From contig JAOZFI010000006.1 of the NCBI GenBank assembly GCA_027491395.1, positions 64,001 through 128,000 on the forward strand: a stretch of 64,000 nt of DNA. Direction: 5' to 3'. Source of the stretch: Thermoproteota archaeon. GTDB taxonomy: Archaea; Korarchaeota; Korarchaeia; Korarchaeales; Korarchaeaceae. Below the pieces are notes generated by a model. That model worked only from the letters and a program-made list of their open reading frames with translations. It did no database searches and was not told the origin of the DNA. Position 1 is the first letter of the stretch, and each line of letters starts with the position of its first letter. This document shows, one piece after another, positions 5,728 through 64,000 of this stretch. Made by a program: the position numbers and the translations under genes.

Positions 5728-6582
5728 ATGCTGGTAAAGGGCTCTCCAGCGAGCAGCGTAACGCTGATATACAATGACGGCAAGAAGAAGACGTTAAAGC
5801 TGGCCAAAAGGCTTGAGGATCTACTCAAAGAGTCTAAAATAAGGATCGTTGGACTGGAAGACGGTCCAGATGTGATCGTGGTCATCGGTGGGGACGGAAC
5901 ACTTCTCAGGGCTTTCCATCAGACCTTGGGTGGGATACCGATCTTGGGAGTGAAGGATGGGACGTACGGAACATTGCTGGAGGTCGATCCAGACGAGATA
6001 GAGTATATACCAGATATACTCTCGAGAGGAATGTACTGGCTCGAGGAGACGTCGACTATTGAAACTAGAGGTGATATAAGGCTCATAGCACTAAACGAGT
6101 TCTTGATAAGGAGTGGAAAGCTCGGTAAGTCGTCTAGGTTGGGAATAGCTGTTGATGGGATTCCAACTGGGGAGTGCATATGTGATGGGGTCATAATATC
6201 CACCCCAACCGGCTCCCTAGCTTATTCTCTTGCGGCTGGTGGTCCTCTAGTTGATCCCAGATCCAAGGACATGGTCGTGTCCTACGTAGCTCCGTGGCCA
6301 CCTAGCCTCACCCTCGCAGTCAAGTCATTCGTACTCCCCTTAGAGTCGGAGGTGGAGATATGGTCCCCAGATCCCCAAGCCTACATAGTAGCTGACGGTC
6401 TCACTCCACTGAAGATGAGACCCCCGATCAGAGTTTCAGGCTCGGATATCAAGGGCGTCTTCGTCCGATTGTCTTCCAACCCGGCCGACTTCTACAAGAG
6501 GATAGTCAAGAGGATGGTTCCAAGGAGGCTAACAGGCATAATGGACTACTTAGAAACAGGCATACTCCCGCAAAACCTTTAA
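5728..6582 (+). CDS. nadK: NAD(+) kinase
   Basis: GGDGTLL, LNE, DGVIISTPTGSLAYSLAAGGP. Confidence 0.93.
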   Translation: MLVKGSPASSVTLIYNDGKKKTLKLAKRLEDLLKESKIRIVGLEDGPDVIVVIGGDGTLLRAFHQTLGGIPILGVKDGTYGTLLEVDPDEIEYIPDILSRGMYWLEETSTIETRGDIRLIALNEFLIRSGKLGKSSRLGIAVDGIPTGECICDGVIISTPTGSLAYSLAAGGPLVDPRSKDMVVSYVAPWPPSLTLAVKSFVLPLESEVEIWSPDPQAYIVADGLTPLKMRPPIRVSGSDIKGVFVRLSSNPADFYKRIVKRMVPRRLTGIMDYLETGILPQNL

Positions 6583-6613
6583 ATTCCTGAGAATGGGAAG
6601 ACATGAACGCGGG

Positions 6614-6700
6614 GCGGGGGTGGCCGAGCCAGGTCCAAGGCGACGGACTCAAGATCCGTTGGGCGTCAGGCCCGCGTGGGTTCGAATCCCACCCCCCGCA
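6614..6700 (+). tRNA. tRNA-Leu(CAA), no encoded CCA, no intron
   Basis: GCGGGGG/CCCCCGC acceptor stem, ACGGA-CTCAAGA-TCCGT anticodon arm, long variable arm, GTTCGAATC T-loop; TTTAAAT TATA-like element near 6578. Confidence 0.97.
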
Positions 6701-6706
6701 CTCATC

Positions 6707-7852
6707 TCAAAGTTCTCCATACTCCTTGAACATCTCCACGAGAATCGGATTTATCTCAACTATTTTCGTTTTACCCACGGAGGTTCTCCTCACCACACCT
6801 GCCGAGTCCAATCGCTTCAAAATCCTAGATACCTTGCTTTTAGAGAAGCCCGTGAGTTCAGGGAGATCCTTCTGCTCGATTTTCCCCCCTTTCTCTAGTA
6901 TTATATCCAGTATACTGCGTTCATCCCTGTCAAGCCTCTCCACCAGCTCCTTGTACTGTTCCAATGTCTCATCATCTAAAACTATCTCCTCAGGCGAGGA
7001 ACCAGACCATCCCTCCAATTTGGGTTTCCTTGATGCTCTCTTGTAGAGCATGAATGCTGCCCCTCCCGTTATAGCGTTCGATCCTAGAATGGCCAACAGT
7101 AGCTCCGTGAGAGGTAGCCCTCTATCCACACCGTTTGACGGTGTAGTATTGGTGATGACTATCGTCTCTTCGCTTTTGGGAGGTAGAGTTTCTCCCTCTA
7201 CTCTAAATACTATGCTGAAGTCCCATGCGTTTCCTCTCGGTAGAGGGAAGGGTTTCCACAATGCTGTCAGCCTCTCCGATAGGGGATCCATCTCCACGGC
7301 ACCGGAAGTTCCTATCTTGGTTATGGCAGCTCCGTATGGAAGCAATATCCTCATCGTAGACCTGTTGTATTCTACGGTAGCATTGGGCATGTAGAATCGA
7401 TATACTAGCCTATACGTGTTGTCTTTAACCCTAACTAGTATGGTGTTCGGCTTGAACATGAAGGAGAATGTGATATTCCTTACATCACCTGGCCTCATCT
7501 CCTTTCCGAATTTTACCAGTATGACGTCGGCATAGGACTTCGTTTCGATCTTACTCACGGAGATGTCCCCTGAGAGCGGCCTCAGATTCTCTATGCCTTT
7601 ATACGGGTTCTCTATGACTATACCCACCGGAAGTACCGGGAACATTAGGGAGTTAACGCTACCATTGTACTCTTCATCGACAACGATCTCAGCAGTGATC
7701 GTTACCTTAACAGACGTATTCTCATAAAGCTCCGTGCTAACATTCATTTTATTTATAGTCACACCAGCGACGGGTCCTCCAGCGGAGTGGAAACTCAACT
7801 GGGCCATTATGAGTAGGAGTATTCCTGTTAGTATCGTTGCGTTTTGTTTCAT
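6707..7852 (-). CDS. Membrane-anchored winged-HTH transcriptional regulator with extracellular domain (COG2512-like)
   Basis: Signal peptide, beta-rich domain with many N-x-S/T sequons, Pro/Thr linker, TM helix, C-terminal QKDLPELTGFSKSKVSRILKRL wHTH. Confidence 0.8.
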   Translation of the reverse strand: MKQNATILTGILLLIMAQLSFHSAGGPVAGVTINKMNVSTELYENTSVKVTITAEIVVDEEYNGSVNSLMFPVLPVGIVIENPYKGIENLRPLSGDISVSKIETKSYADVILVKFGKEMRPGDVRNITFSFMFKPNTILVRVKDNTYRLVYRFYMPNATVEYNRSTMRILLPYGAAITKIGTSGAVEMDPLSERLTALWKPFPLPRGNAWDFSIVFRVEGETLPPKSEETIVITNTTPSNGVDRGLPLTELLLAILGSNAITGGAAFMLYKRASRKPKLEGWSGSSPEEIVLDDETLEQYKELVERLDRDERSILDIILEKGGKIEQKDLPELTGFSKSKVSRILKRLDSAGVVRRTSVGKTKIVEINPILVEMFKEYGEL

Positions 7853-55918: not shown

Positions 55919-57602
55919 CGCTGAGCCATACGCCCCTTATCTCCTTAATTAGTTCCCTACTCTCCTCAGCTGAGTCAGAGCCCTCCAGCTCATCTAATAC
56001 CATCCTAACGGCACCGCTCTCCAAGTAGGTGGCCCTTCCCCTGACTATCACTTCCCGACCTATCATCTCTCTCGCTATTTTATCAGTTGGTACGGAGTGA
56101 GAGGGCTCCCCCAACTCATCAGCTGCCTTTATCACATCCTCAGTGCTCATTCCCAGTATCCTCTCGGCCCTGTCCCTGAAGGCCACGACCCTTGCTATTC
56201 CCGTCCCATCATCTATTGTGAATGTGAGGTAGAGCAGCGGGGTGGCTCTCTCCAACTCACCGCAATTGGGACAGTGAAATCTACCATACTCAAACTCTAC
56301 ACGCGCACCGCAGTTAGGACAGTGCCAAGTCACTCTAGCAGTGTCGGAGAACGAGATGATTGTCCCCCTGAACTCCCTTAGGCCATCAGATGATTCGCCT
56401 ATCCACATCCTCCTATACTTTATCCTCTTAGCTGCCTTTTCCAGTTTGGGAGGAATTGGCTGCGCAATCTTCTCGAGAATTTCAACCGTTCCGGATCTAC
56501 TGAGGACGACTATTCCATCATTGTCAGTGTATACTGGCCCAAACCTGAGCCTAAAGGGAGGGGCCTCCTCGGCCAGCAGGTCAGCCCAATCTCCCCATAC
56601 TCTGAGGATCTCTAAAGAACCATCGACCTCGACCAGTAAGTCGAGGAATTTCCTACCCTTGGTTCCTATCTCCTCCAAGGGGAATGAGAAGAGAACCGTG
56701 CCCTCCAGCATTCCGCTGCTACCCTCTTCTGACACTTCCAATTTAGTGAGCGGCGTGGAGTGAAGCTCTAGTGAGTCGTCCCTCATGACTACTCTAGCAC
56801 CTGTGAGAATAACGGTAGATCCCTCCACGATCCCATCCGTCAGGGAGGCCTTATCTCCCCAGAGAACAACCCTAACCATATCTCCTTCCTCATCCCTTAG
56901 TAAGAAGGAACTCCTCCTCCCGATACTACCATCGCTTCTGGTGAATTCTGAGACAGGATAGACCCTAACAACCGTCCCCTTGAAATCAACAACATCACCA
57001 TCTTTATCGTAGAGCTCCCTCACCTTCAGGATTTTCCTCTCCTCTACTGGAAGATCCTCATAACCGCCGGGTAGGACCTCTATATCTGACCCGGAATCGA
57101 GATGCAGGGCCACCCTACCGAACCTCTCCGAGACCCGCGCGTTAGTCACCTTGATAACATCGCCCTCCCCTATCTCCCCTTTACGTATCCTGTCGACCAA
57201 GCTCTTTGACCAAACGATGACATCTATATGCCCGGTCTCATCTGCCAGTTTGAACTCCGCCCTCTCAGATGGCTCTCCTCTTCTGTTGATGTAGCTGAGT
57301 ATACCGTACATTCTCACTATCTTTCCTTGGACGGTGGCTTTCCTCATACCGGGAACTAGCTTGCTGATCTTGATTGTTGGGTAGTGGACCTGCTCGTCTT
57401 TGGTTACTTGACCCACATCGAGCTCAACGGCTATGAGGGAGAGGGCACCATCGGGCTTAACGAGACCCTTCATCTCCTCCACGTACTTCCTTACCCTCTC
57501 CAGCACCTCTTCCACTGTAAGGCCTGCCTTGGAAGCCACTAACCTCACTTTCTCCATGAACTCCTCGTCAAAGCCCTCATCGCGTCCAGCATCCAACCTC
57601 AA
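55890..57602 (-). CDS. rpa: Replication protein A (multi-OB fold with Zn finger)
   Basis: Repeated DETG/DEEG/DDGTG..W OB motifs; CPNC..CPNC. Confidence 0.87.
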   Translation of the reverse strand: MRLDAGRDEGFDEEFMEKVRLVASKAGLTVEEVLERVRKYVEEMKGLVKPDGALSLIAVELDVGQVTKDEQVHYPTIKISKLVPGMRKATVQGKIVRMYGILSYINRRGEPSERAEFKLADETGHIDVIVWSKSLVDRIRKGEIGEGDVIKVTNARVSERFGRVALHLDSGSDIEVLPGGYEDLPVEERKILKVRELYDKDGDVVDFKGTVVRVYPVSEFTRSDGSIGRRSSFLLRDEEGDMVRVVLWGDKASLTDGIVEGSTVILTGARVVMRDDSLELHSTPLTKLEVSEEGSSGMLEGTVLFSFPLEEIGTKGRKFLDLLVEVDGSLEILRVWGDWADLLAEEAPPFRLRFGPVYTDNDGIVVLSRSGTVEILEKIAQPIPPKLEKAAKRIKYRRMWIGESSDGLREFRGTIISFSDTARVTWHCPNCGARVEFEYGRFHCPNCGELERATPLLYLTFTIDDGTGIARVVAFRDRAERILGMSTEDVIKAADELGEPSHSVPTDKIAREMIGREVIVRGRATYLESGAVRMVLDELEGSDSAEESRELIKEIRGVWLSGEDIEDNHG

Positions 57603-58639
57603 ACACCCGAGCTCTCCACCTCAACAATCGACGGTCTATCTAACCCACCCTCCACTCTAAACTTAACCGGTAGGAATTTCTCCACCAGCCATATATTACT
57701 TTCAGCATGCAGGGTCAACCTTGAGATGCCTATTCTCGACCTTCCCGAGGCTATTGCCAAGTAGGGGATTATCATATCACCTGAATGATTGTCAAAAGCC
57801 ATCCCGGTATCTAACTCCTCCAGCAACTTGGTTGCAGCGTTCTTCCCGACTGCCTCACTCGGCTTACCCCTCTCTCCAAGATCGTCAGCGCCTATAACTG
57901 GCTTACTTTCGGTCCAGAGGACTATGCCGGCACCCGGACCGAGATGCCTGTCTTGAGACCAATCCTCCTCTATGAACACCTTGAACCCCTTGCCCTCCAA
58001 TAACTCGCTCGCTGCCCTGATCATCCTCTTCGTGATATGATTAGGTAGCTTGACCGCGTGCGCTCTTCCTCTGATTAGAGAGATGTCATCCCTCTTCACC
58101 CTACTGAGACCTGAGAGGTCCGATGGCCACACCCTCAGCTCCACCAGTCCGCCGCCCTTTGGATAGTGGCCCCTCCTGATCAGTCTAATTTCTGCATGAG
58201 CTCCCATCATGGTGAGATTCGGGAGAAAGACCTCTCTCATATAGTCGATGGGAGGTGCCATGGGGACATCCGTTCCCCCCCTAATGAGGAACCTCACATC
58301 ACTGTCAGATGTCAGGCAAGCTGGCAACAACGCTTGAATCACGAGAGTCACGCTTCCAGCTGTACCTATGTCTACCTCAAATGATCCCCCTCTCTTATTC
58401 TTGGGTACGAAGAGCACTCTAGTGGAACCCACCCTAGCTCCTTCCACGTGAGCTTCCGTTAGCTTAGCGAGGGCCATCACGGCATTGAGATGCTGCGGTC
58501 TGAGGCCTGGTTTCTTCCTCTTGGCCCTTATATTGTACACCTCAACAGGCTTGAGCGTGACGGCAGACAGGGATAAGGCGTATCTTAGTATGGATCCCCC
58601 ACCTTCTCCGTAACTTCCATCTATCCTTATCAGCTCCAT
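57599..58639 (-). CDS. rtcA: RNA 3'-terminal phosphate cyclase
   Basis: DGSYGEGGG, PGLRPQH, TAGS, GGTDV, RRGHYPKGGG, TLHAESN. Confidence 0.95.
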   Translation of the reverse strand: MELIRIDGSYGEGGGSILRYALSLSAVTLKPVEVYNIRAKRKKPGLRPQHLNAVMALAKLTEAHVEGARVGSTRVLFVPKNKRGGSFEVDIGTAGSVTLVIQALLPACLTSDSDVRFLIRGGTDVPMAPPIDYMREVFLPNLTMMGAHAEIRLIRRGHYPKGGGLVELRVWPSDLSGLSRVKRDDISLIRGRAHAVKLPNHITKRMIRAASELLEGKGFKVFIEEDWSQDRHLGPGAGIVLWTESKPVIGADDLGERGKPSEAVGKNAATKLLEELDTGMAFDNHSGDMIIPYLAIASGRSRIGISRLTLHAESNIWLVEKFLPVKFRVEGGLDRPSIVEVESSGV

Positions 58640-58706: not shown

Positions 58707-59348
58707 ATGGCGGGGACGAAGATTAAGTTCGTCATAGAGGAGGTGGACGGTAGATACGTGGGAATTGGAGTTGGTGGAAGGGAGCTCTACTGCAATACGA
58801 TCCCCCTCCCCTCCAAAGAGGAGGCAGAGGCCGACCTGAGAGCTACCTGCTACTCGGCGTGGGGGGATTCATTGGATCTAGTGCCAGAGTATCACATACC
58901 CTCAGCTTACGGATTGGCCCTCCTTATAAGTAAGCTGTTCTCCGGCGAGAGTACAGATCTCTCCGGAATCAGACTGGCCCGCCATCCCCGGGACAAATTT
59001 TGGAACGCTATCTTGCTGATGAGCTCAATACCGAGGGGCATGGTAACAACCTACGGGGAGCTGGCGAGGGCCTTGGGCACGTCGCCGAGGGCCGCTGGAA
59101 ACTATGCCTCTCGAAACCCGTTTCCGCTCATAGTTCCCTGCCACAGGGTGATAAGGAGCGACATGAGGATAGGGGGCTACAGCTACGGTCCCATACTTAA
59201 AGCATCACTGTTAATTGCAGAAGGTGTGAAGGTGGACTTCGACACAGGTAAGGTAGATCCCTCAAGGGTGATCAGATCCGAGGATTTACTGTCCCTTAAG
59301 GAGGTGCAGGGAATTGTCAGTTACCACCAAACACGTCTTCGCATCTGA
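58707..59348 (+). CDS. ogt: O6-alkylguanine-DNA alkyltransferase
   Basis: IPRG..TYGELA, RAAG, NP..LIVPCHRV. Confidence 0.92.
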   Translation: MAGTKIKFVIEEVDGRYVGIGVGGRELYCNTIPLPSKEEAEADLRATCYSAWGDSLDLVPEYHIPSAYGLALLISKLFSGESTDLSGIRLARHPRDKFWNAILLMSSIPRGMVTTYGELARALGTSPRAAGNYASRNPFPLIVPCHRVIRSDMRIGGYSYGPILKASLLIAEGVKVDFDTGKVDPSRVIRSEDLLSLKEVQGIVSYHQTRLRI

Positions 59349-60597
59349 CTTCGGTACTTCATACTACAAGTTCGGGCCTTGGTGGCTCATGAAGACCGGT
59401 CCCGACATGGTAGAGAACAGGGGGTACTTTCCGAGGATATCGAAGCTCTCGGCCGAGGTCAGGGGCATAAAGTCTAGGGAAGTAGTGGTGGGTAACGAGG
59501 TAGCAGAGTACTTGGAGTCTAGAGCTGACCTATCTAGGCTATATTATCCCATGAGAAATGGCATAGTGGAGAGAGGGGATGAGAGGGGCTGGAAGGTTAT
59601 AAAGGAGCTCGTGAGATACGGGCTTCTCAAATACCATCCCGGAAGAACGGATTCTACTGGAGTTCCCTTCCATGGCTTCTTCGTAGTCGCATCGCTAGCT
59701 GCCCAAGCACCCACCTACATGTACGAGAGGATGTTTGAGATCCATAGGGAGGTGAACGCCGAGGAAGGAGGTGGCCTCGTGAGGGCGGTCACTATAATAC
59801 CACAGCCGCTAGCTGTTGCTATAGCGGAGAAGGCGGTAACATGCATCGTGGTTGAAGCTGGACATGGAAACACCCAGATAACGCCCATAAGCAGGGACGT
59901 AATCAAGGCCGCCTTGATTCCCCTCAACAGGGGAGGAAGCGACTCGGACAGGATCGCGGCCCAGATACTGAAGGATCTCGGTTACTCCGACTTAGCTAGG
60001 GAGGAGAAATTCGTCCGTATATTCAAGGAATCAGTGGGCCTCCTTCCCTTAGACGTAGATAAAGCCGTATCCTGGGCGAAGGATCATCCCAGCGCGTTGC
60101 AGTCGGTCTTCCGCATTCCCGGTACTACCGTGGAGGTGGACATGGGAGATAAAGCGTGGCAGAGGTTCCTCATCGGCGAGTTCTTCTTCAATCCCGGACA
60201 CGAGATCTTCGAGAGCTACTACTCTAGGGGCTTTACTCCCCCCAAGGACACTCTAGTGGGAGGTGAAGTAATCCCAGGGGATGTGAGCCTCGCCGAAGCC
60301 CTGAGGGAAGCCATTTCCAAGACCCCTGTTGAACTACAATCGTCCATAGTTAGGCACGTTATACTATCGGGAGGGGCCTTCAACTGGCAAGTCCCCAAAG
60401 GATTGGAAGGGATAGCTACGGACTCGCCGACCAAGCTTAAGGTGATGATGAAATCCGTGGGTCTGGAAACCGGTCCCAAGATGGTCTCAGACCCTCAGTT
60501 CAGCGTGTGGAGAGGAGCCGTAGTCTACGGATTGGCAGTCGGGGAAGGAATAAAGTGGGACTGGGGAAAAATGGAGGGCTGGTTCTACGTGGAATGA
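59314..60597 (+). CDS. Crenactin (archaeal actin)
   Basis: DFGTSYYKFGP, PQPLAVAIAE, EAGHGNTQ, LNRGG, RFLIGE, ILSGGAF, PQFSVWRGAVVYG, EGW match Thermoproteales crenactin as recalled; TTG start with GGAGGTG SD. Confidence 0.93.
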   Translation: MSVTTKHVFASDFGTSYYKFGPWWLMKTGPDMVENRGYFPRISKLSAEVRGIKSREVVVGNEVAEYLESRADLSRLYYPMRNGIVERGDERGWKVIKELVRYGLLKYHPGRTDSTGVPFHGFFVVASLAAQAPTYMYERMFEIHREVNAEEGGGLVRAVTIIPQPLAVAIAEKAVTCIVVEAGHGNTQITPISRDVIKAALIPLNRGGSDSDRIAAQILKDLGYSDLAREEKFVRIFKESVGLLPLDVDKAVSWAKDHPSALQSVFRIPGTTVEVDMGDKAWQRFLIGEFFFNPGHEIFESYYSRGFTPPKDTLVGGEVIPGDVSLAEALREAISKTPVELQSSIVRHVILSGGAFNWQVPKGLEGIATDSPTKLKVMMKSVGLETGPKMVSDPQFSVWRGAVVYGLAVGEGIKWDWGKMEGWFYVE

Positions 60598-61328
60598 ACC
60601 ATCTCTTGGAATTGGATGGCATTCTCGAAGCTAAAATAGGAGTTATTGAATAGTACGTAGTTCTCCCTCAAGGACCACTTCTCCACGATCTCCCTAAGCT
60701 TCTCTAATTCCTCCTGACCGTACTTGTGAGAGTAAACAATCTTCTTTCCCTCCTTCCTCCCATGCAGTCTATAATACCGAATCTTACCGTAAACAGGAAC
60801 TTCGTACATGGGGTCTACAACATGGGAGATACCTAGGTCCTCCAGCAGATCCCTGAACTCCGGGCTCTTGAACCAACCAGCCTCTCTGACCTCCCATGTC
60901 AGCAGGAAATCCCCTGATATGGCTGAGAAGAACTCTCGCGCGTTGGTGAGATTGACCTCGTTGAATTCGAAGGAGGGCGGGCTTTGAAAAACTACAATAT
61001 TAGCTCCGAGCTCCTTCACTAGAGTCCTGAATTCCTCCCAAAGGTCGAAGTTCTCCTTGGTGGGCTTTAGCGACCCGTAAGAGTCTTCCTTAGGAAGGCC
61101 CGTCTTATCCCATATCCTGCTCTTGGGATCGTGGGTGAAGGCCATCCAGGCCTTTACGGTGAATTCAAAGTCTTTAGGGGATTCTCCACGCCATTTTCTT
61201 AAAGTTTCAACCTTTGGAGGTTTATAAAATGTCTTTTGGATCTCCACCAACCTGAGTTTCTCGTAGTACTTCTTCCTAGAGACCTGAAACCCGCAGCAAC
61301 CCACCTTCACGGTAACAGATATCCCCAT
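60585..61328 (-). CDS. DUF72 (UPF0759) TIM-barrel protein
   Basis: VGCCGF, VEIQKTFY, FTVKA, FQSPPSF, WEVR, YYRLHG, FNN. Confidence 0.9.
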   Translation of the reverse strand: MGISVTVKVGCCGFQVSRKKYYEKLRLVEIQKTFYKPPKVETLRKWRGESPKDFEFTVKAWMAFTHDPKSRIWDKTGLPKEDSYGSLKPTKENFDLWEEFRTLVKELGANIVVFQSPPSFEFNEVNLTNAREFFSAISGDFLLTWEVREAGWFKSPEFRDLLEDLGISHVVDPMYEVPVYGKIRYYRLHGRKEGKKIVYSHKYGQEELEKLREIVEKWSLRENYVLFNNSYFSFENAIQFQEMVHST

Positions 61329-62392
61329 TTCTCCACTATCGCCTCCACATCCCTATCCCTTCTAATTACTGATAAGAGGTTTTCACCCCTCATGAAAGAG
61401 TCTAGCACCTCCCTCATGGATCTAACTCCAGCTAAGATCCCTCTGGGGTGATCATATATTCCTAGATCCCCGTTGAGGATCACCTGCAGGTCCTCAGGTA
61501 CGTTAGCGATGGCTATTCCCTGATGGACTTGGGGAGCAGTCAACGGCATCGCGGCGTCCTTCCCACCTCCTATGATTTCGTCTAGCTCCATAACGATTCC
61601 CAAATCTTCCCGCTTCCACGCCACGGGTCTCTCAATCAGATCAAAGCCACTAACCCTTAGGAGCTCGTAAGTGGCTTTAATTCCCAGACCTACCTCTCTA
61701 ATGAGGCAGTTCACCCCCCTCGCTGCTAAAAATATGTCATCTAGGAACTCGATCGCAAGCTCAAGCCTGCCTAAATCCCAGCACAGATGAACGTAAAATC
61801 CCCTCATCCCCAAGGAGATGGCGCGCTCTAGGTCTTCCGAAGATGTAGGAAGTCTCATGAAGTACAACACCCGCCTTCCTTTCTCCTCTTTTATTCTATC
61901 GGTGATTTCGACTATTTGATGAGCCCTATCTAGGTAGGGAGAAGCCTCCTTGTCCATTAAATTGAGAGGATCGAAGCCCACGTGAAGACCAGCTTTACAC
62001 ATCTCCCTAAATAATCTCGCATGCGAGAGAGGATGCAAAACAATATTTTTTCCTACTGAGGCCGCCACACCAGGTCCTCTCAGCCCCAAATACTTCTTCA
62101 GTCCAGATTTACCGGGAATAGGGGGTCTCACTCTGTCGAGAGGAAATTCAACGCTCTTCACCTCACAGATCAGGGGGAGATGCTCCAATAGCGATCCCAC
62201 CGCATAGTATACGGATGGAAGGAGGAGATCCCCGCCCACCAATTCCTCGGGTAGCTCGATGATGTATCGGTACTTCCCTACCTCCTCCAGCTTTACCCTC
62301 GCCTCTACCTCTCCTTCTAAGTCTGTTGGTACAGACGTCTCTTCCAAGGACTTTTTACACTTGAGTTCCAAGATCAAGACCTTTTCACCCAC
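61307..62392 (-). CDS. Highly divergent RuBisCO large-subunit-fold protein lacking catalytic motifs
   Basis: SPYLDR..EEKG..LY, RVSGFD, GIYDHPRGILAGVRSMRE and EKWG match the RuBisCO scaffold; KDDE appears as FDPL. Confidence 0.75.
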   Translation of the reverse strand: MGEKVLILELKCKKSLEETSVPTDLEGEVEARVKLEEVGKYRYIIELPEELVGGDLLLPSVYYAVGSLLEHLPLICEVKSVEFPLDRVRPPIPGKSGLKKYLGLRGPGVAASVGKNIVLHPLSHARLFREMCKAGLHVGFDPLNLMDKEASPYLDRAHQIVEITDRIKEEKGRRVLYFMRLPTSSEDLERAISLGMRGFYVHLCWDLGRLELAIEFLDDIFLAARGVNCLIREVGLGIKATYELLRVSGFDLIERPVAWKREDLGIVMELDEIIGGGKDAAMPLTAPQVHQGIAIANVPEDLQVILNGDLGIYDHPRGILAGVRSMREVLDSFMRGENLLSVIRRDRDVEAIVEKWGYLLP

Positions 62393-62444
62393 ATTCGGTC
62401 ATTACCCGGGGTTCCCTTAAATGATTCCGGTGTAGGTATGTCCG

Positions 62445-63680
62445 ATGCCGGAAGAGGTGGAAGTGCCGAGGGGTAAGGGAGTGTTAGTGAGGTCACCAGC
62501 CTATATTAAACCTCTAAGCGGCAACATTGAAGTTTGGGGTGCCGAGTTCGATGAGATATCGGTTCAGATGGACGGTGTAGAGCTACTAATCACATCCTCA
62601 ATCGATTCGAAAGTGGCTATAGATGGACACTACGTGAAGTTAGAGAACCCCATCCCGGACTGGTGGGAAGAGCTTCCTGAAACCGTAGCAGGCAAAAATA
62701 CCATGTTCATAGGAAGAGTAGACTCCGGCAAGAGTTCCACGGTAGTTTTTACGATCAACAGGATAGTAGGGAGCGGTAGCGCAGTCTCCATAATCGATTC
62801 AGACGTTGGCCAGTCTGATCTGGGACCACCTGGGGTGATCTCCAGCAAGGATGTGGGAAAGCCCGTCATCCACACCAAGTTACTGGAACCTGACTTCATG
62901 TACTTCATCGGCGACAAGACACCAAGCGGTCATTTCCTCCCGATGGTGAAGGGACTTCTAGAAGCTTTGAATAGATCTAGGAGCGATACAGTTCTAATAA
63001 ACACCACGGGTTTCGTGGATGGAGGGGCAGCTAGGGCTCTAAAGAGGTTCAAAGTCGAGTTCTTAGATCCAGATATCGTAGTGCTGATAGAGAAGGAAGA
63101 AGGGGACTTGAATCACATTGCTAAGACAATTCCCAAAGATGTAAAGGTTCTAAAGGTTAGATCACCAGTAGGAGATCTGGCCAAAAGCAGGAATTACAGG
63201 ATCGCCGTAAGGAGGGCTCTACTCAGGAGATACCTATCTGGCGCCGCTACGAGAAAGTTTGACCTCCGGGAGATTGAGCTGATGAATACATTCCTCATGA
63301 CCGGCAAGGCGAAGGACGAGTACATCCCATTTTTGGAGCGCATCTTAGGAGCGAGAGTTCATTGGATGGAGGAGTCCCCCGACATGCTCATAGCGATCAC
63401 GGAAAGCGAAGTAGATAGGAGGAAAATTGCGATGCTCTCAGGGCTCTTGAACAAGGAGGTGAGAATAGGCCCAATGATTGTATACAAGGGACTTTACGTG
63501 GGCCTTATCCGAGGGAGGGGGTGCAAGGGCGTCGGCATAATACAATCAATGGACATTAGGGAGGGTTGGATGAGCGTCTTAACCAAGTATGAGGGACCAC
63601 TAGATGGAATTGCACTGGGATACATCAGGTTTAATGCTGAGGGCGAGGAACTCGGCTCAAGGGGGATGAACGTTCCATGA
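62445..63680 (+). CDS. Clp1/Nol9-family polynucleotide 5'-kinase
   Basis: GRVDSGKSS, DSDVGQSDLGPPG, INTTGFV, R...R motif. Confidence 0.9.
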   Translation: MPEEVEVPRGKGVLVRSPAYIKPLSGNIEVWGAEFDEISVQMDGVELLITSSIDSKVAIDGHYVKLENPIPDWWEELPETVAGKNTMFIGRVDSGKSSTVVFTINRIVGSGSAVSIIDSDVGQSDLGPPGVISSKDVGKPVIHTKLLEPDFMYFIGDKTPSGHFLPMVKGLLEALNRSRSDTVLINTTGFVDGGAARALKRFKVEFLDPDIVVLIEKEEGDLNHIAKTIPKDVKVLKVRSPVGDLAKSRNYRIAVRRALLRRYLSGAATRKFDLREIELMNTFLMTGKAKDEYIPFLERILGARVHWMEESPDMLIAITESEVDRRKIAMLSGLLNKEVRIGPMIVYKGLYVGLIRGRGCKGVGIIQSMDIREGWMSVLTKYEGPLDGIALGYIRFNAEGEELGSRGMNVP

Positions 63681-64000
63681 GCTCCTCCTACATAAAAAAT
63701 CTCGATGAGCTTGTTGATAACGGGGCAACTAGGAAGGACAAGGACGCTAGAAGGGCCCTGTTGCTGGCTTTTGATAAGGCGATAACGGCAGCTGACGCTT
63801 ACAAAGCGGTATTTTCCAGATTCTCGGATCAGGAGATAGTGTTCGGTACCTCATCCATCGACATAGGATCTTTTAAGGATGTATACGTGGTGGGAGCGGG
63901 AAAAGCTGGGAGCATGATGGCTAAAGCCGTGGAGGACAGAATTGGGAAACGCATATCATTTGGTTGGGTAAATGTCCCTGCTAAGACTGAGAAGACCGTT
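63677..64000 (+). CDS. Glycerate 2-kinase (DUF4147/MOFRL), 5' part
   Basis: Manual translation from ATG 63677 (ATGA overlap): MSSLYIKN...AADAYKAV...VYVVGAGKAGSMMA. Confidence 0.85.
   Translation, partial: MSSSYIKNLDELVDNGATRKDKDARRALLLAFDKAITAADAYKAVFSRFSDQEIVFGTSSIDIGSFKDVYVVGAGKAGSMMAKAVEDRIGKRISFGWVNVPAKTEKTV

Follow-up and report, generated by a model that had tools for sequence, protein, structure and literature searches.

The window analysed here, a 64,000-nucleotide stretch of a Korarchaeal genome (contig JAOZFI010000006.1), carries on its minus strand a gene whose product adopts, by prediction, the fold of the large subunit of RuBisCO, the carboxylase/oxygenase of ribulose-1,5-bisphosphate, and lacks the canonical active site of that family. 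We refer to this RuBisCO-like protein (RLP) as Kor-RLP. Its alignments and structural models point to a two-domain RuBisCO scaffold that has been stripped of the family's known chemistry, in an open reading frame (ORF) held under purifying selection. The locus comprises the following features, with the gene itself and its parts given first:

61307..62392, minus strand: the Kor-RLP gene, encoding a RuBisCO-large-subunit fold without the canonical active site (from the ORF, fold, alignments and purifying selection).
62129..62392, minus strand: shortened N-terminal alpha/beta domain of Kor-RLP, residues 1-88 (from alignment and DSSP assignment of the models).
61391..62128, minus strand: (beta/alpha)8 barrel, residues 89-334 (from alignments and the structure model).
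61310..61390, minus strand: C-terminal helices, residues 335-361 (RGENLLSV...VEKWGYLLP), the best-conserved segment.
61307..61328, minus strand: 22 nt over which the Kor-RLP 3' end and the DUF72 5' end overlap (from the ORF coordinates).
60585..61328, minus strand: DUF72 gene, 247 amino acids, downstream of and co-oriented with Kor-RLP (Pfam PF01904, 140.8 bits).
62416..62422, minus strand: TATA-like element ATTTAAG, ending 23 nt upstream of the Kor-RLP GTG, invariant in 8/8 aligned orthologous loci.
62445..63680, plus strand: Clp1-type P-loop kinase gene, the divergent upstream neighbour and a marker of synteny (Pfam CLP1_P, 113 bits).

The Kor-RLP ORF comprises 361 amino acids, starts with GTG and contains no internal stop codon, in agreement with an earlier note on this DNA that had described it as intact and full-length; a TTG five codons past the GTG is the start chosen for the database homologs. 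The same note had reported a TATA-like upstream element and a 22-nt overlap with DUF72, and both are found. Through the overlap, the last seven codons of Kor-RLP double as the start of DUF72 coding. This arrangement is identical in all six related loci for which both ORF ends were read, as well as in genome G020, and the coordinates of the two genes overlap in each of the ten genomes of the genus that have Kor-RLP. The upstream ATTTAAG is unchanged even between orthologs that share 45% protein identity, and sits inside the 52-nt divergent intergenic region that separates Kor-RLP from the Clp1-like gene. We infer that ATTTAAG is the promoter element of Kor-RLP; because of its place within this divergent region, it may serve the Clp1-like gene as well.

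The relationship of Kor-RLP to RuBisCO is visible in sequence and in predicted structure. Against chains of the Protein Data Bank, phmmer matched the protein to a form III RuBisCO (8dht) with an E-value of 2e-11, and aligned it full-length with the RLP MtnW (2oej; residues 80-358). A Foldseek search with a predicted structure, the check that the earlier note had named for its RuBisCO assignment, returned RuBisCO or RLP chains as all of its top matches, with probability 1.0. The model used in that search was a first AlphaFold2 prediction from 11 sequences (predicted local distance difference test score, pLDDT, of 72.1), which was later superseded by a model from a 45-sequence alignment (pLDDT 90.5; predicted template-modelling score, pTM, 0.89). 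A protein-atlas search with Kor-RLP yielded solely RuBisCO-family clusters, with scores of 0.92-0.93. Because the phmmer alignment, the Foldseek matches and the 45-sequence model concur, the N-terminal domain and the barrel are both present, and the models indicate that Kor-RLP is a two-domain protein of the RuBisCO-large-subunit fold and, at the level of fold, a member of the superfamily. The scaffold landmarks that had been picked out by eye (GLKKYLG, SPYLDR..EEKG..LY, SGFD, HPRG..AG..MRE and EKWG) all align with the matching form III segments, and the N-terminal domain is about 50 residues shorter than that of form III.

Family-level profiles score the window protein below their thresholds. 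With Pfam PF00016 (RuBisCO_large) it reaches 29.5 bits, short of the gathering score of 30.1 and over residues 284-356 only; relatives do pass this profile, which is annotated in six of ten homologs and gives 49.8 bits for the homolog in genome G004. Scores against NCBIfam models fall far below the cut-offs: 44.4 bits against 497 for TIGR03326 (rubisco_III), 38.7 against 409 for NF007095 (MtnW), 27.8 against 513.6 for TIGR03332 and 34.5 against 700 for NF042437 (OiaX).

Active-site positions were read from alignments of 111 family members and then of a curated set, with 11 form III proteins, six of them from Korarchaeal genomes, as controls. In these controls, none of the 19 canonical positions of catalysis and substrate binding varies. 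Among the ten Kor-RLP sequences of the window's genus, by contrast, none of the 17 positions that can be aligned reliably keeps its canonical residue; the columns of E60 and K334 are ambiguous, lying in poorly aligned stretches, and we note S379 separately, since its column holds S in six of the ten sequences and A in the window protein. At the metal site, K201 corresponds to F140 of the window protein (F in nine sequences of the genus and M in one), D203 to P142 (P in all ten) and E204 to L143 (L, I or P in the genus), leaving D202, presumably not a metal ligand, as the one residue of this motif that is retained. H327 has become E254, G380 has become P287 and G403 has become D309, each without exception in the ten sequences, while G381 is replaced by Q288 (Q, H, R or D across the genus) and G404 by L310 (L or V). 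T65 and W66 are deleted and N123 is S or L. Sequences from the other genera place an acidic residue at the G403 column (11/13) and at the G404 column (13/13). Taken together, the alignments indicate that the glycine loops for the two substrate phosphates now carry proline or acidic residues, and that the known catalytic site of the RuBisCO family, both its phosphate-binding sites and what its N-terminal domain contributes have been wholly replaced in Kor-RLP.

The substitutions that the earlier note had listed by eye largely stand. Alignments reproduce KDDE as FDPL and SGG as APQ, and also KxK as GKNI, although K115 pairs with K175 in phmmer and MAFFT moves this pairing one position along; the clade does not conserve K115, which is L in P0008-P0010. 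The remaining one, HxHR as LAAR, depends on the alignment chosen, with R225 paired to H292 in one, to R295 in another and to neither in a third. Lysine is absent from the K201 column in every row of the clade that Kor-RLP forms with its orthologs (0/18 in one alignment, 0/23 in another). The note had further stated that most RLPs keep the Mg site, and the wider family is consistent with this: among 93 non-Korarchaeal representatives, K201 is kept in 71 and K201, D203 and E204 together in 62, with 22 lacking K at the K201 column.

A bona fide RuBisCO is recognised by a carbamylated K201 together with the D203/E204 Mg2+ site and by K175, K177, H294, R295, H327, K334, S379, G380, G381, G403 and G404, joined by E60, T65, W66 and N123 of the N-terminal domain, and a characterised form IV RLP by the K201/D203/E204 site together with a score over its NCBIfam cut-off; the window protein shows neither combination. 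To our knowledge, every characterised member of the superfamily uses one carbamate-Mg2+ site to stabilise an enolate. Kor-RLP is thus probably not a carboxylase, nor does it work as an enolase or isomerase in the manner of the RLPs that have been characterised. Three cysteines (C76, C204 and C229) that are invariant in an 11-sequence alignment were considered as a metal site and set aside, as the columns of 204 and 229 are not Cys in G020.

The orthologs of Kor-RLP form a lineage of their own. Ten homologs (44-91% identity, 347-362 amino acids) were found among 5.8 billion clustered proteins, and an exhaustive HMMER profile search of 1.84 billion representatives gave 118 matches, of which P0004 and P0011-P0016 alone had E < 1e-20. 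All of these strongest matches fall inside a clade of 27 rows, including P0012, that we term the Kor-clade; its support by the Shimodaira-Hasegawa-like approximate likelihood ratio test (SH-aLRT) is 99, and its branching order follows the genera. For four representatives (P0013, P0014, P0016 and P0024), Korarchaeal genomes of the same class hold an identical or almost identical sequence. In a 116-row tree (IQ-TREE, LG+G4, quick search, with a midpoint root and long branches), the Kor-clade stands apart from form III, within which the Korarchaeal form III sequences lie, and from the MtnW-like groups. Kor-RLP occurs in 22 of 40 genomes of one Korarchaeota class, a count that leaves out three further matches that are form III only, and in 0 of 3 genomes of the phylum outside this class. 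These results indicate that the Kor-RLP lineage is old, vertically inherited and confined to a single class of Korarchaeota.

Annotation of the lineage is inconsistent, in that the type found in the window's genus is called 'hypothetical protein' and that of another genus 'RuBisCO large subunit-like protein'; a cluster member of the protein with 91% identity bears the NCBI name 'hypothetical protein [Candidatus Korarchaeota archaeon]'. We also observed that the homolog on G009:C3 (L028 1486-3135, minus strand) lies in an ORF of 549 amino acids (open frame 564), compared with 376 in its congeners, a difference that an extended N-terminus, a fusion or a wrongly called start could explain.

Despite the loss of its catalytic residues, Kor-RLP is conserved as a coding sequence. 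Its orthologs show ratios of nonsynonymous to synonymous substitution (dN/dS) of 0.05-0.14 (pairwise Nei-Gojobori, with dS from 0.13 up to saturation), much like the 0.03-0.17 obtained for the adjacent Clp1-like, DUF72 and RtcA genes. In each of the 22 carrier genomes, the ten congeners included, the ORF is intact, with no stops inside the matches. The dN/dS check and the intact frame, together with the invariant promoter element, agree with the earlier proposal that the gene is retained and not decaying. Lost catalytic residues, an intact ORF and purifying selection, the combination by which a pseudoenzyme is recognised, are all present in Kor-RLP, and it is the most completely stripped RuBisCO homolog in this analysis that is still under selection. 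One could instead regard the gene as a neutrally decaying relic of a former form III RuBisCO, which would account for the missing catalytic residues, for the repeated gene loss described below and for the fact that Kor-RLP evolves faster than any gene around it (towards the congener most distant from it, identity is 45% for Kor-RLP and 56-84% for the neighbours). Neutral decay is contradicted, however, by dN/dS of 0.05-0.20 maintained over saturating dS, and is hard to reconcile with an ORF intact in 22/22 carriers or with a fold that is predicted with confidence, and the Kor-clade is not nested in the Korarchaeal form III sequences; we therefore hold this account to be scarcely credible.

The surroundings of Kor-RLP change between genera in a way that bears on its history. 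Within the family, the gene belongs to a syntenic block composed of a glycerate-kinase-like gene (DUF4147+MOFRL), the Clp1-like gene, Kor-RLP where it is present, DUF72, crenactin, an MGMT-like gene and RtcA. In four other genera of the family, g2-g5, a Kor-RLP of 364-406 amino acids follows the Clp1-like gene and is succeeded, tail-to-tail, by an opposite-strand gene of about 334 amino acids, which is a ribose-1,5-bisphosphate (R15P) isomerase (TIGR00511, 420-434 bits against a cut-off of 314). This isomerase gene lies between Kor-RLP and DUF72 in g2-g4; in G038 (g5) and G004 (g6), there is no DUF72 at the Kor-RLP locus and the isomerase is present beside Kor-RLP. Overall, the isomerase adjoins Kor-RLP in 12 of the 12 genomes that have both. 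Since the pairing is kept in G004, which belongs to another family and whose remaining neighbours are unrelated (an ABC transporter, a carbamoyltransferase, an amidohydrolase, a phosphoesterase and a CdvA-like gene), it exceeds background synteny.

Passages of PMC12787533 and PMC9700705 describe R15P isomerase as supplying form III RuBisCO within the adenosine monophosphate (AMP), or pentose-bisphosphate, pathway, and in the genera with a Kor-RLP/isomerase pair a true form III RuBisCO is present too, as is AMP phosphorylase. Across the 40 genomes of the class, form III RuBisCO exceeds its cut-off in 15, R15P isomerase in 14 and AMP phosphorylase in 16, counts that agree with the form III-b rbcL, deoA and e2b2 genes which PMC12787533, in the part that deals with them, reports for some Korarchaeota clades. 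Each of the three is over its cut-off in 0 of the 21 genomes of the window's genus, and the window's own genome, which is 98.4% complete, contains no RuBisCO homolog besides the Kor-RLP ORF. Comparison of these loci indicates that Kor-RLP was ancestrally placed tail-to-tail with R15P isomerase and that the window's genus has lost the AMP pathway. On the same evidence, the isomerase gene was deleted once, in the ancestor of the genus, which brought Kor-RLP by its 3' end onto DUF72 and created the 22-nt overlap.

Two observations from the search for related enzymes stand apart from this history. The sole IF-2B-family enzyme of the window's genome, which has no R15P isomerase, is the 5-methylthioribose-1-phosphate isomerase MtnA (379 bits on TIGR00512, whose cut-off is 279; G000:C47, L085 1363-2406, plus strand), which we rejected as a partner of Kor-RLP because MtnA-level matches occur in congeners with and without the gene and show no co-variation with it. 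A second RuBisCO-family ORF, of 412 amino acids, is found on G020:C9 (L087 1968-3206, minus strand); its K-D-D-E, H-R..H and S-G-G motifs are intact, K177 is S, the loop-6 lysine seems to be changed, and it scores 167.6 bits on rubisco_III, under the cut-off. As it lies on a short contig of 7.9 kb, its attribution to the congener genome is uncertain.

Not every member of the genus has kept Kor-RLP. No match was found in 11 of the 21 genomes, four of which are 99% complete. In nine of the 11, the Clp1-like gene and DUF72 lie immediately next to each other, so that no remnant of Kor-RLP could fit between them; the other two are 83% and 63% complete, and the locus count covers the nine. In a tree of crenactin and DUF72 from 23 genomes, the genomes without Kor-RLP form two fully supported clades, corresponding to at least two changes of state, although a single loss is possible because the fork that joins the two clades is not resolved. 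In another genus, G032 and G033 have kept the Clp1-like gene, isomerase, DUF72, form III RuBisCO and AMP phosphorylase without Kor-RLP. Together with the window's genus, these two genomes show that Kor-RLP and the AMP pathway can each exist alone, and Kor-RLP is apparently a dispensable accessory gene in about half of the genus. In one congener without Kor-RLP, G014:C35 (L073 ~6240-7660; L048), the match to the Clp1-like gene is split into three fragments that lie in different frames, perhaps because the gene is frameshifted or broken, or because the assembly is wrong there.

The earlier note had suggested that Kor-RLP might join an active form III enzyme as a hetero-oligomer partner, or regulate it. 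The active sites of RuBisCO span a dimer, so that a dead subunit could in principle modulate an active one, and other genera do pair Kor-RLP with a true form III enzyme and an adjoining R15P isomerase. In the window organism, however, there is no other RuBisCO homolog for it to join, and the genus-wide absence of form III RuBisCO, R15P isomerase and AMP phosphorylase extends this objection to the pathway at large. Selection on Kor-RLP, moreover, is not relaxed where the pathway is gone (dN/dS of 0.095-0.13 in the window's genus versus 0.05-0.20 in the pathway-keeping genera), and G032 and G033 retain the pathway without it. For this organism, a part in regulating form III RuBisCO, or the AMP pathway, thus has next to no chance of being correct. 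A heterodimer with form III is possible only in the other genera, where both proteins exist, and was perhaps an ancestral role.

The same note had also described Kor-RLP as coupled to DUF72, a claim of which the physical half has held and the functional half has not. The overlap is real and is kept in all ten carrier genomes of the genus, with the two genes co-oriented behind one conserved, predicted promoter element, as would be expected if the overlap served translational coupling between partners in a complex or a common pathway. DUF72 itself, however, is found in 38 of the 40 genomes of the class regardless of Kor-RLP, including the nine congeners that cleanly lack Kor-RLP and have DUF72 alone in place. 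The opposite-strand isomerase gene separates the pair in g2-g4, DUF72 is absent from the locus in G038 and G004, and the overlap covers a non-conserved N-terminal extension of DUF72. A functional partnership of the two proteins is, in our judgement, quite improbable. DUF72 is presented in a passage of PMC11791011 as a TIM (triose-phosphate isomerase) barrel related to UV-damage endonuclease, with no assigned function.

We next turn to the parts of the protein on which constraint falls. Invariant positions were counted in the beta-alpha loops, which form the catalytic face, and in the alpha-beta loops at the bottom of the barrel, with strand and helix bounds taken from the model and the two proportions compared by Fisher's test. 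The catalytic face is enriched in the form III controls (29/67 versus 5/35, p 0.004; n=11, median identity 0.49) and in MtnW-like RLPs (27/67 versus 5/35, p 0.007; n=6, median identity 0.40), and is not enriched in Kor-RLP of the genus (12/67 versus 10/35, p 0.31; n=10, median identity 0.48). The N-terminal domain is the least conserved part, with an invariant fraction of 0.02 in the genus versus 0.17 in form III, and the C-terminal helices reach 0.33-0.41, their last seven codons being constrained by the start of DUF72 as well. On the catalytic face, the residues invariant in the genus are L119, D141, P142, D147, E149, P182, P287, D309, Y313, H315, P316 and G318, among which P142, P182 and P287 place invariant prolines at three former ligand positions.

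We give about an even chance to the interpretation that Kor-RLP is a non-catalytic RuBisCO-scaffold protein with a role independent of the AMP pathway. Such a protein, probably oligomeric, would serve in binding or in regulation by way of surfaces away from the barrel mouth; the constraint on Kor-RLP falls on the core of the barrel, on its bottom (alpha-beta) loops and on the C-terminal helices, and not on the catalytic face or the N-terminal domain. Following loss of the AMP pathway in the genus, this pathway-independent role would have kept the gene under selection.

Several findings weigh against this interpretation. A third control, 11 mixed RLPs that keep the metal site, likewise lacks enrichment of the catalytic face (9/67 versus 8/35), and the loop comparison is for this reason suggestive only. 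Purifying selection across the whole barrel also fits an enzyme. Some residues of the barrel mouth are conserved in the clade and could build a new site: D141 and Y/F313, R255 in all genera but one, and an acidic residue at position 309 in 22 of 23 sequences. Lastly, repeated loss, in two clades of the genus and in G032 and G033, implies that whatever function the protein has is not essential.

The principal alternative is a neo-functionalised enzyme whose active site has been rebuilt without a carbamate, and perhaps without a metal, to act on a substrate unrelated to ribulose-1,5-bisphosphate by means of residues such as D141, E254, R255, D309, Y313 and H290. TIM barrels often change chemistry. 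The dN/dS of about 0.1 equals that of the neighbouring enzyme genes, the absence of catalytic-face enrichment is shared with one control group of genuine RLPs, and both E254, in the H327 column, and D309, in the G403 column, are present in ten of ten sequences, with acidic residues at the G403 and G404 columns in other genera. Against a rebuilt site stand the beta-alpha loops of Kor-RLP, which are not more conserved than its alpha-beta loops, the wide variation of barrel-mouth residues among genera of the clade, and the invariant prolines where ligands used to be. The N-terminal domain, which completes the active site in all members of the RuBisCO family known to us, is in addition almost unconstrained. 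We consider a new enzymatic activity possible, and on balance somewhat unlikely.

A more ambitious version of the scaffold interpretation would make Kor-RLP the first lineage-wide RuBisCO pseudoenzyme, a dead subunit that originated next to R15P isomerase, was once a regulatory, inhibitory or scaffolding partner of the AMP pathway and later took on a second, pathway-independent role, which has maintained selection on it in a genus without the pathway. As a joint claim this seems to us doubtful; if it were true, inactive heterodimers with form III RuBisCO, or binding to the isomerase, might have been the ancestral mode of action.

Beyond the genes already discussed, the locus is flanked by an RtcA (RNA 3'-phosphate cyclase) gene at 57599-58639 (minus strand) and by a DUF4147+MOFRL (glycerate-kinase-type) gene at 63677-64000 (plus strand), which overlaps the Clp1-type kinase gene by 4 nt. 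A crenactin-like gene at 59314-60597 (plus strand; Pfam Actin, 44.8 bits) shares 35 nt with the 3' end of an MGMT-like DNA-binding-domain gene (58707-59348, plus strand) and 13 nt (60585-60597) with the convergent DUF72 gene, again at the 3' end of the latter. No gene of the block is more conserved than crenactin, whose dN/dS is 0.01-0.04.

In the Kor-RLP lineage, the whole two-domain fold has been kept under purifying selection since before the genera of this Korarchaeal class diverged, while the metal site, both phosphate sites and the N-terminal contributions were replaced. Kor-RLP is therefore a natural experiment on the abilities of a RuBisCO scaffold that has lost its chemistry. The comparative pattern, in which the gene stands beside R15P isomerase where the AMP pathway exists, stands alone where the pathway is gone and has been cleanly lost several times, lends itself to experimental work. 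In metagenome-assembled genomes of Korarchaeota, genes of this kind must not be taken as signs of CO2 fixation or AMP salvage. The relevant passage of PMC12787533 counts Korarchaeal RuBisCO by above-threshold K01601 matches, a procedure that would probably miss Kor-RLP because of its sub-threshold family scores. In the literature searched on RuBisCO, RLPs and Korarchaeota, with supplements (PMC12787533 figs S10, S11) outside its scope, we found no description of the Kor-RLP lineage.

Among known systems, archaeal form III RuBisCO (2cwx, 3a12 and 6hun) shares with Kor-RLP the motifs GP..G, ETGR, HP.G..AG and EKWGY. Kor-RLP differs from it in being about 70 residues shorter, mainly in the N-terminal domain, in having changed all 17 of the reliably aligned canonical positions and in belonging to a separate clade. 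The form IV RLPs, namely MtnW (the 2,3-diketo-5-methylthiopentyl-1-phosphate enolase; 2oej and 2zvi), the decarboxylase OiaX, and the Photo and DeepYkr groups, are like Kor-RLP in being non-carboxylating members of the superfamily. MtnW-like RLPs work by enolisation; their rows all read K-D-D-E where Kor-RLP reads F-D-P-L, and they conserve the catalytic face, whereas Kor-RLP does not. Loss of the metal site is also seen in three other metagenomic representatives (P0036, P0037 and P0059), each lacking K201, D203 and E204 together; as these lie on branches unrelated to Kor-RLP, the superfamily has undergone such loss more than once. RLPs that look dead are in themselves not new, since Jaffe et al. 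(2019; PMC6389311) describe, in the section concerned, divergent 'form IV-like' RLPs in phages and CPR (candidate phyla radiation) bacteria. As characterised there, those proteins resemble Kor-RLP in being highly divergent, with key residues missing or partly conserved; Kor-RLP differs from them in its lineage and hosts, in the completeness of the loss, and in being a chromosomal gene that is vertically inherited at a fixed locus.

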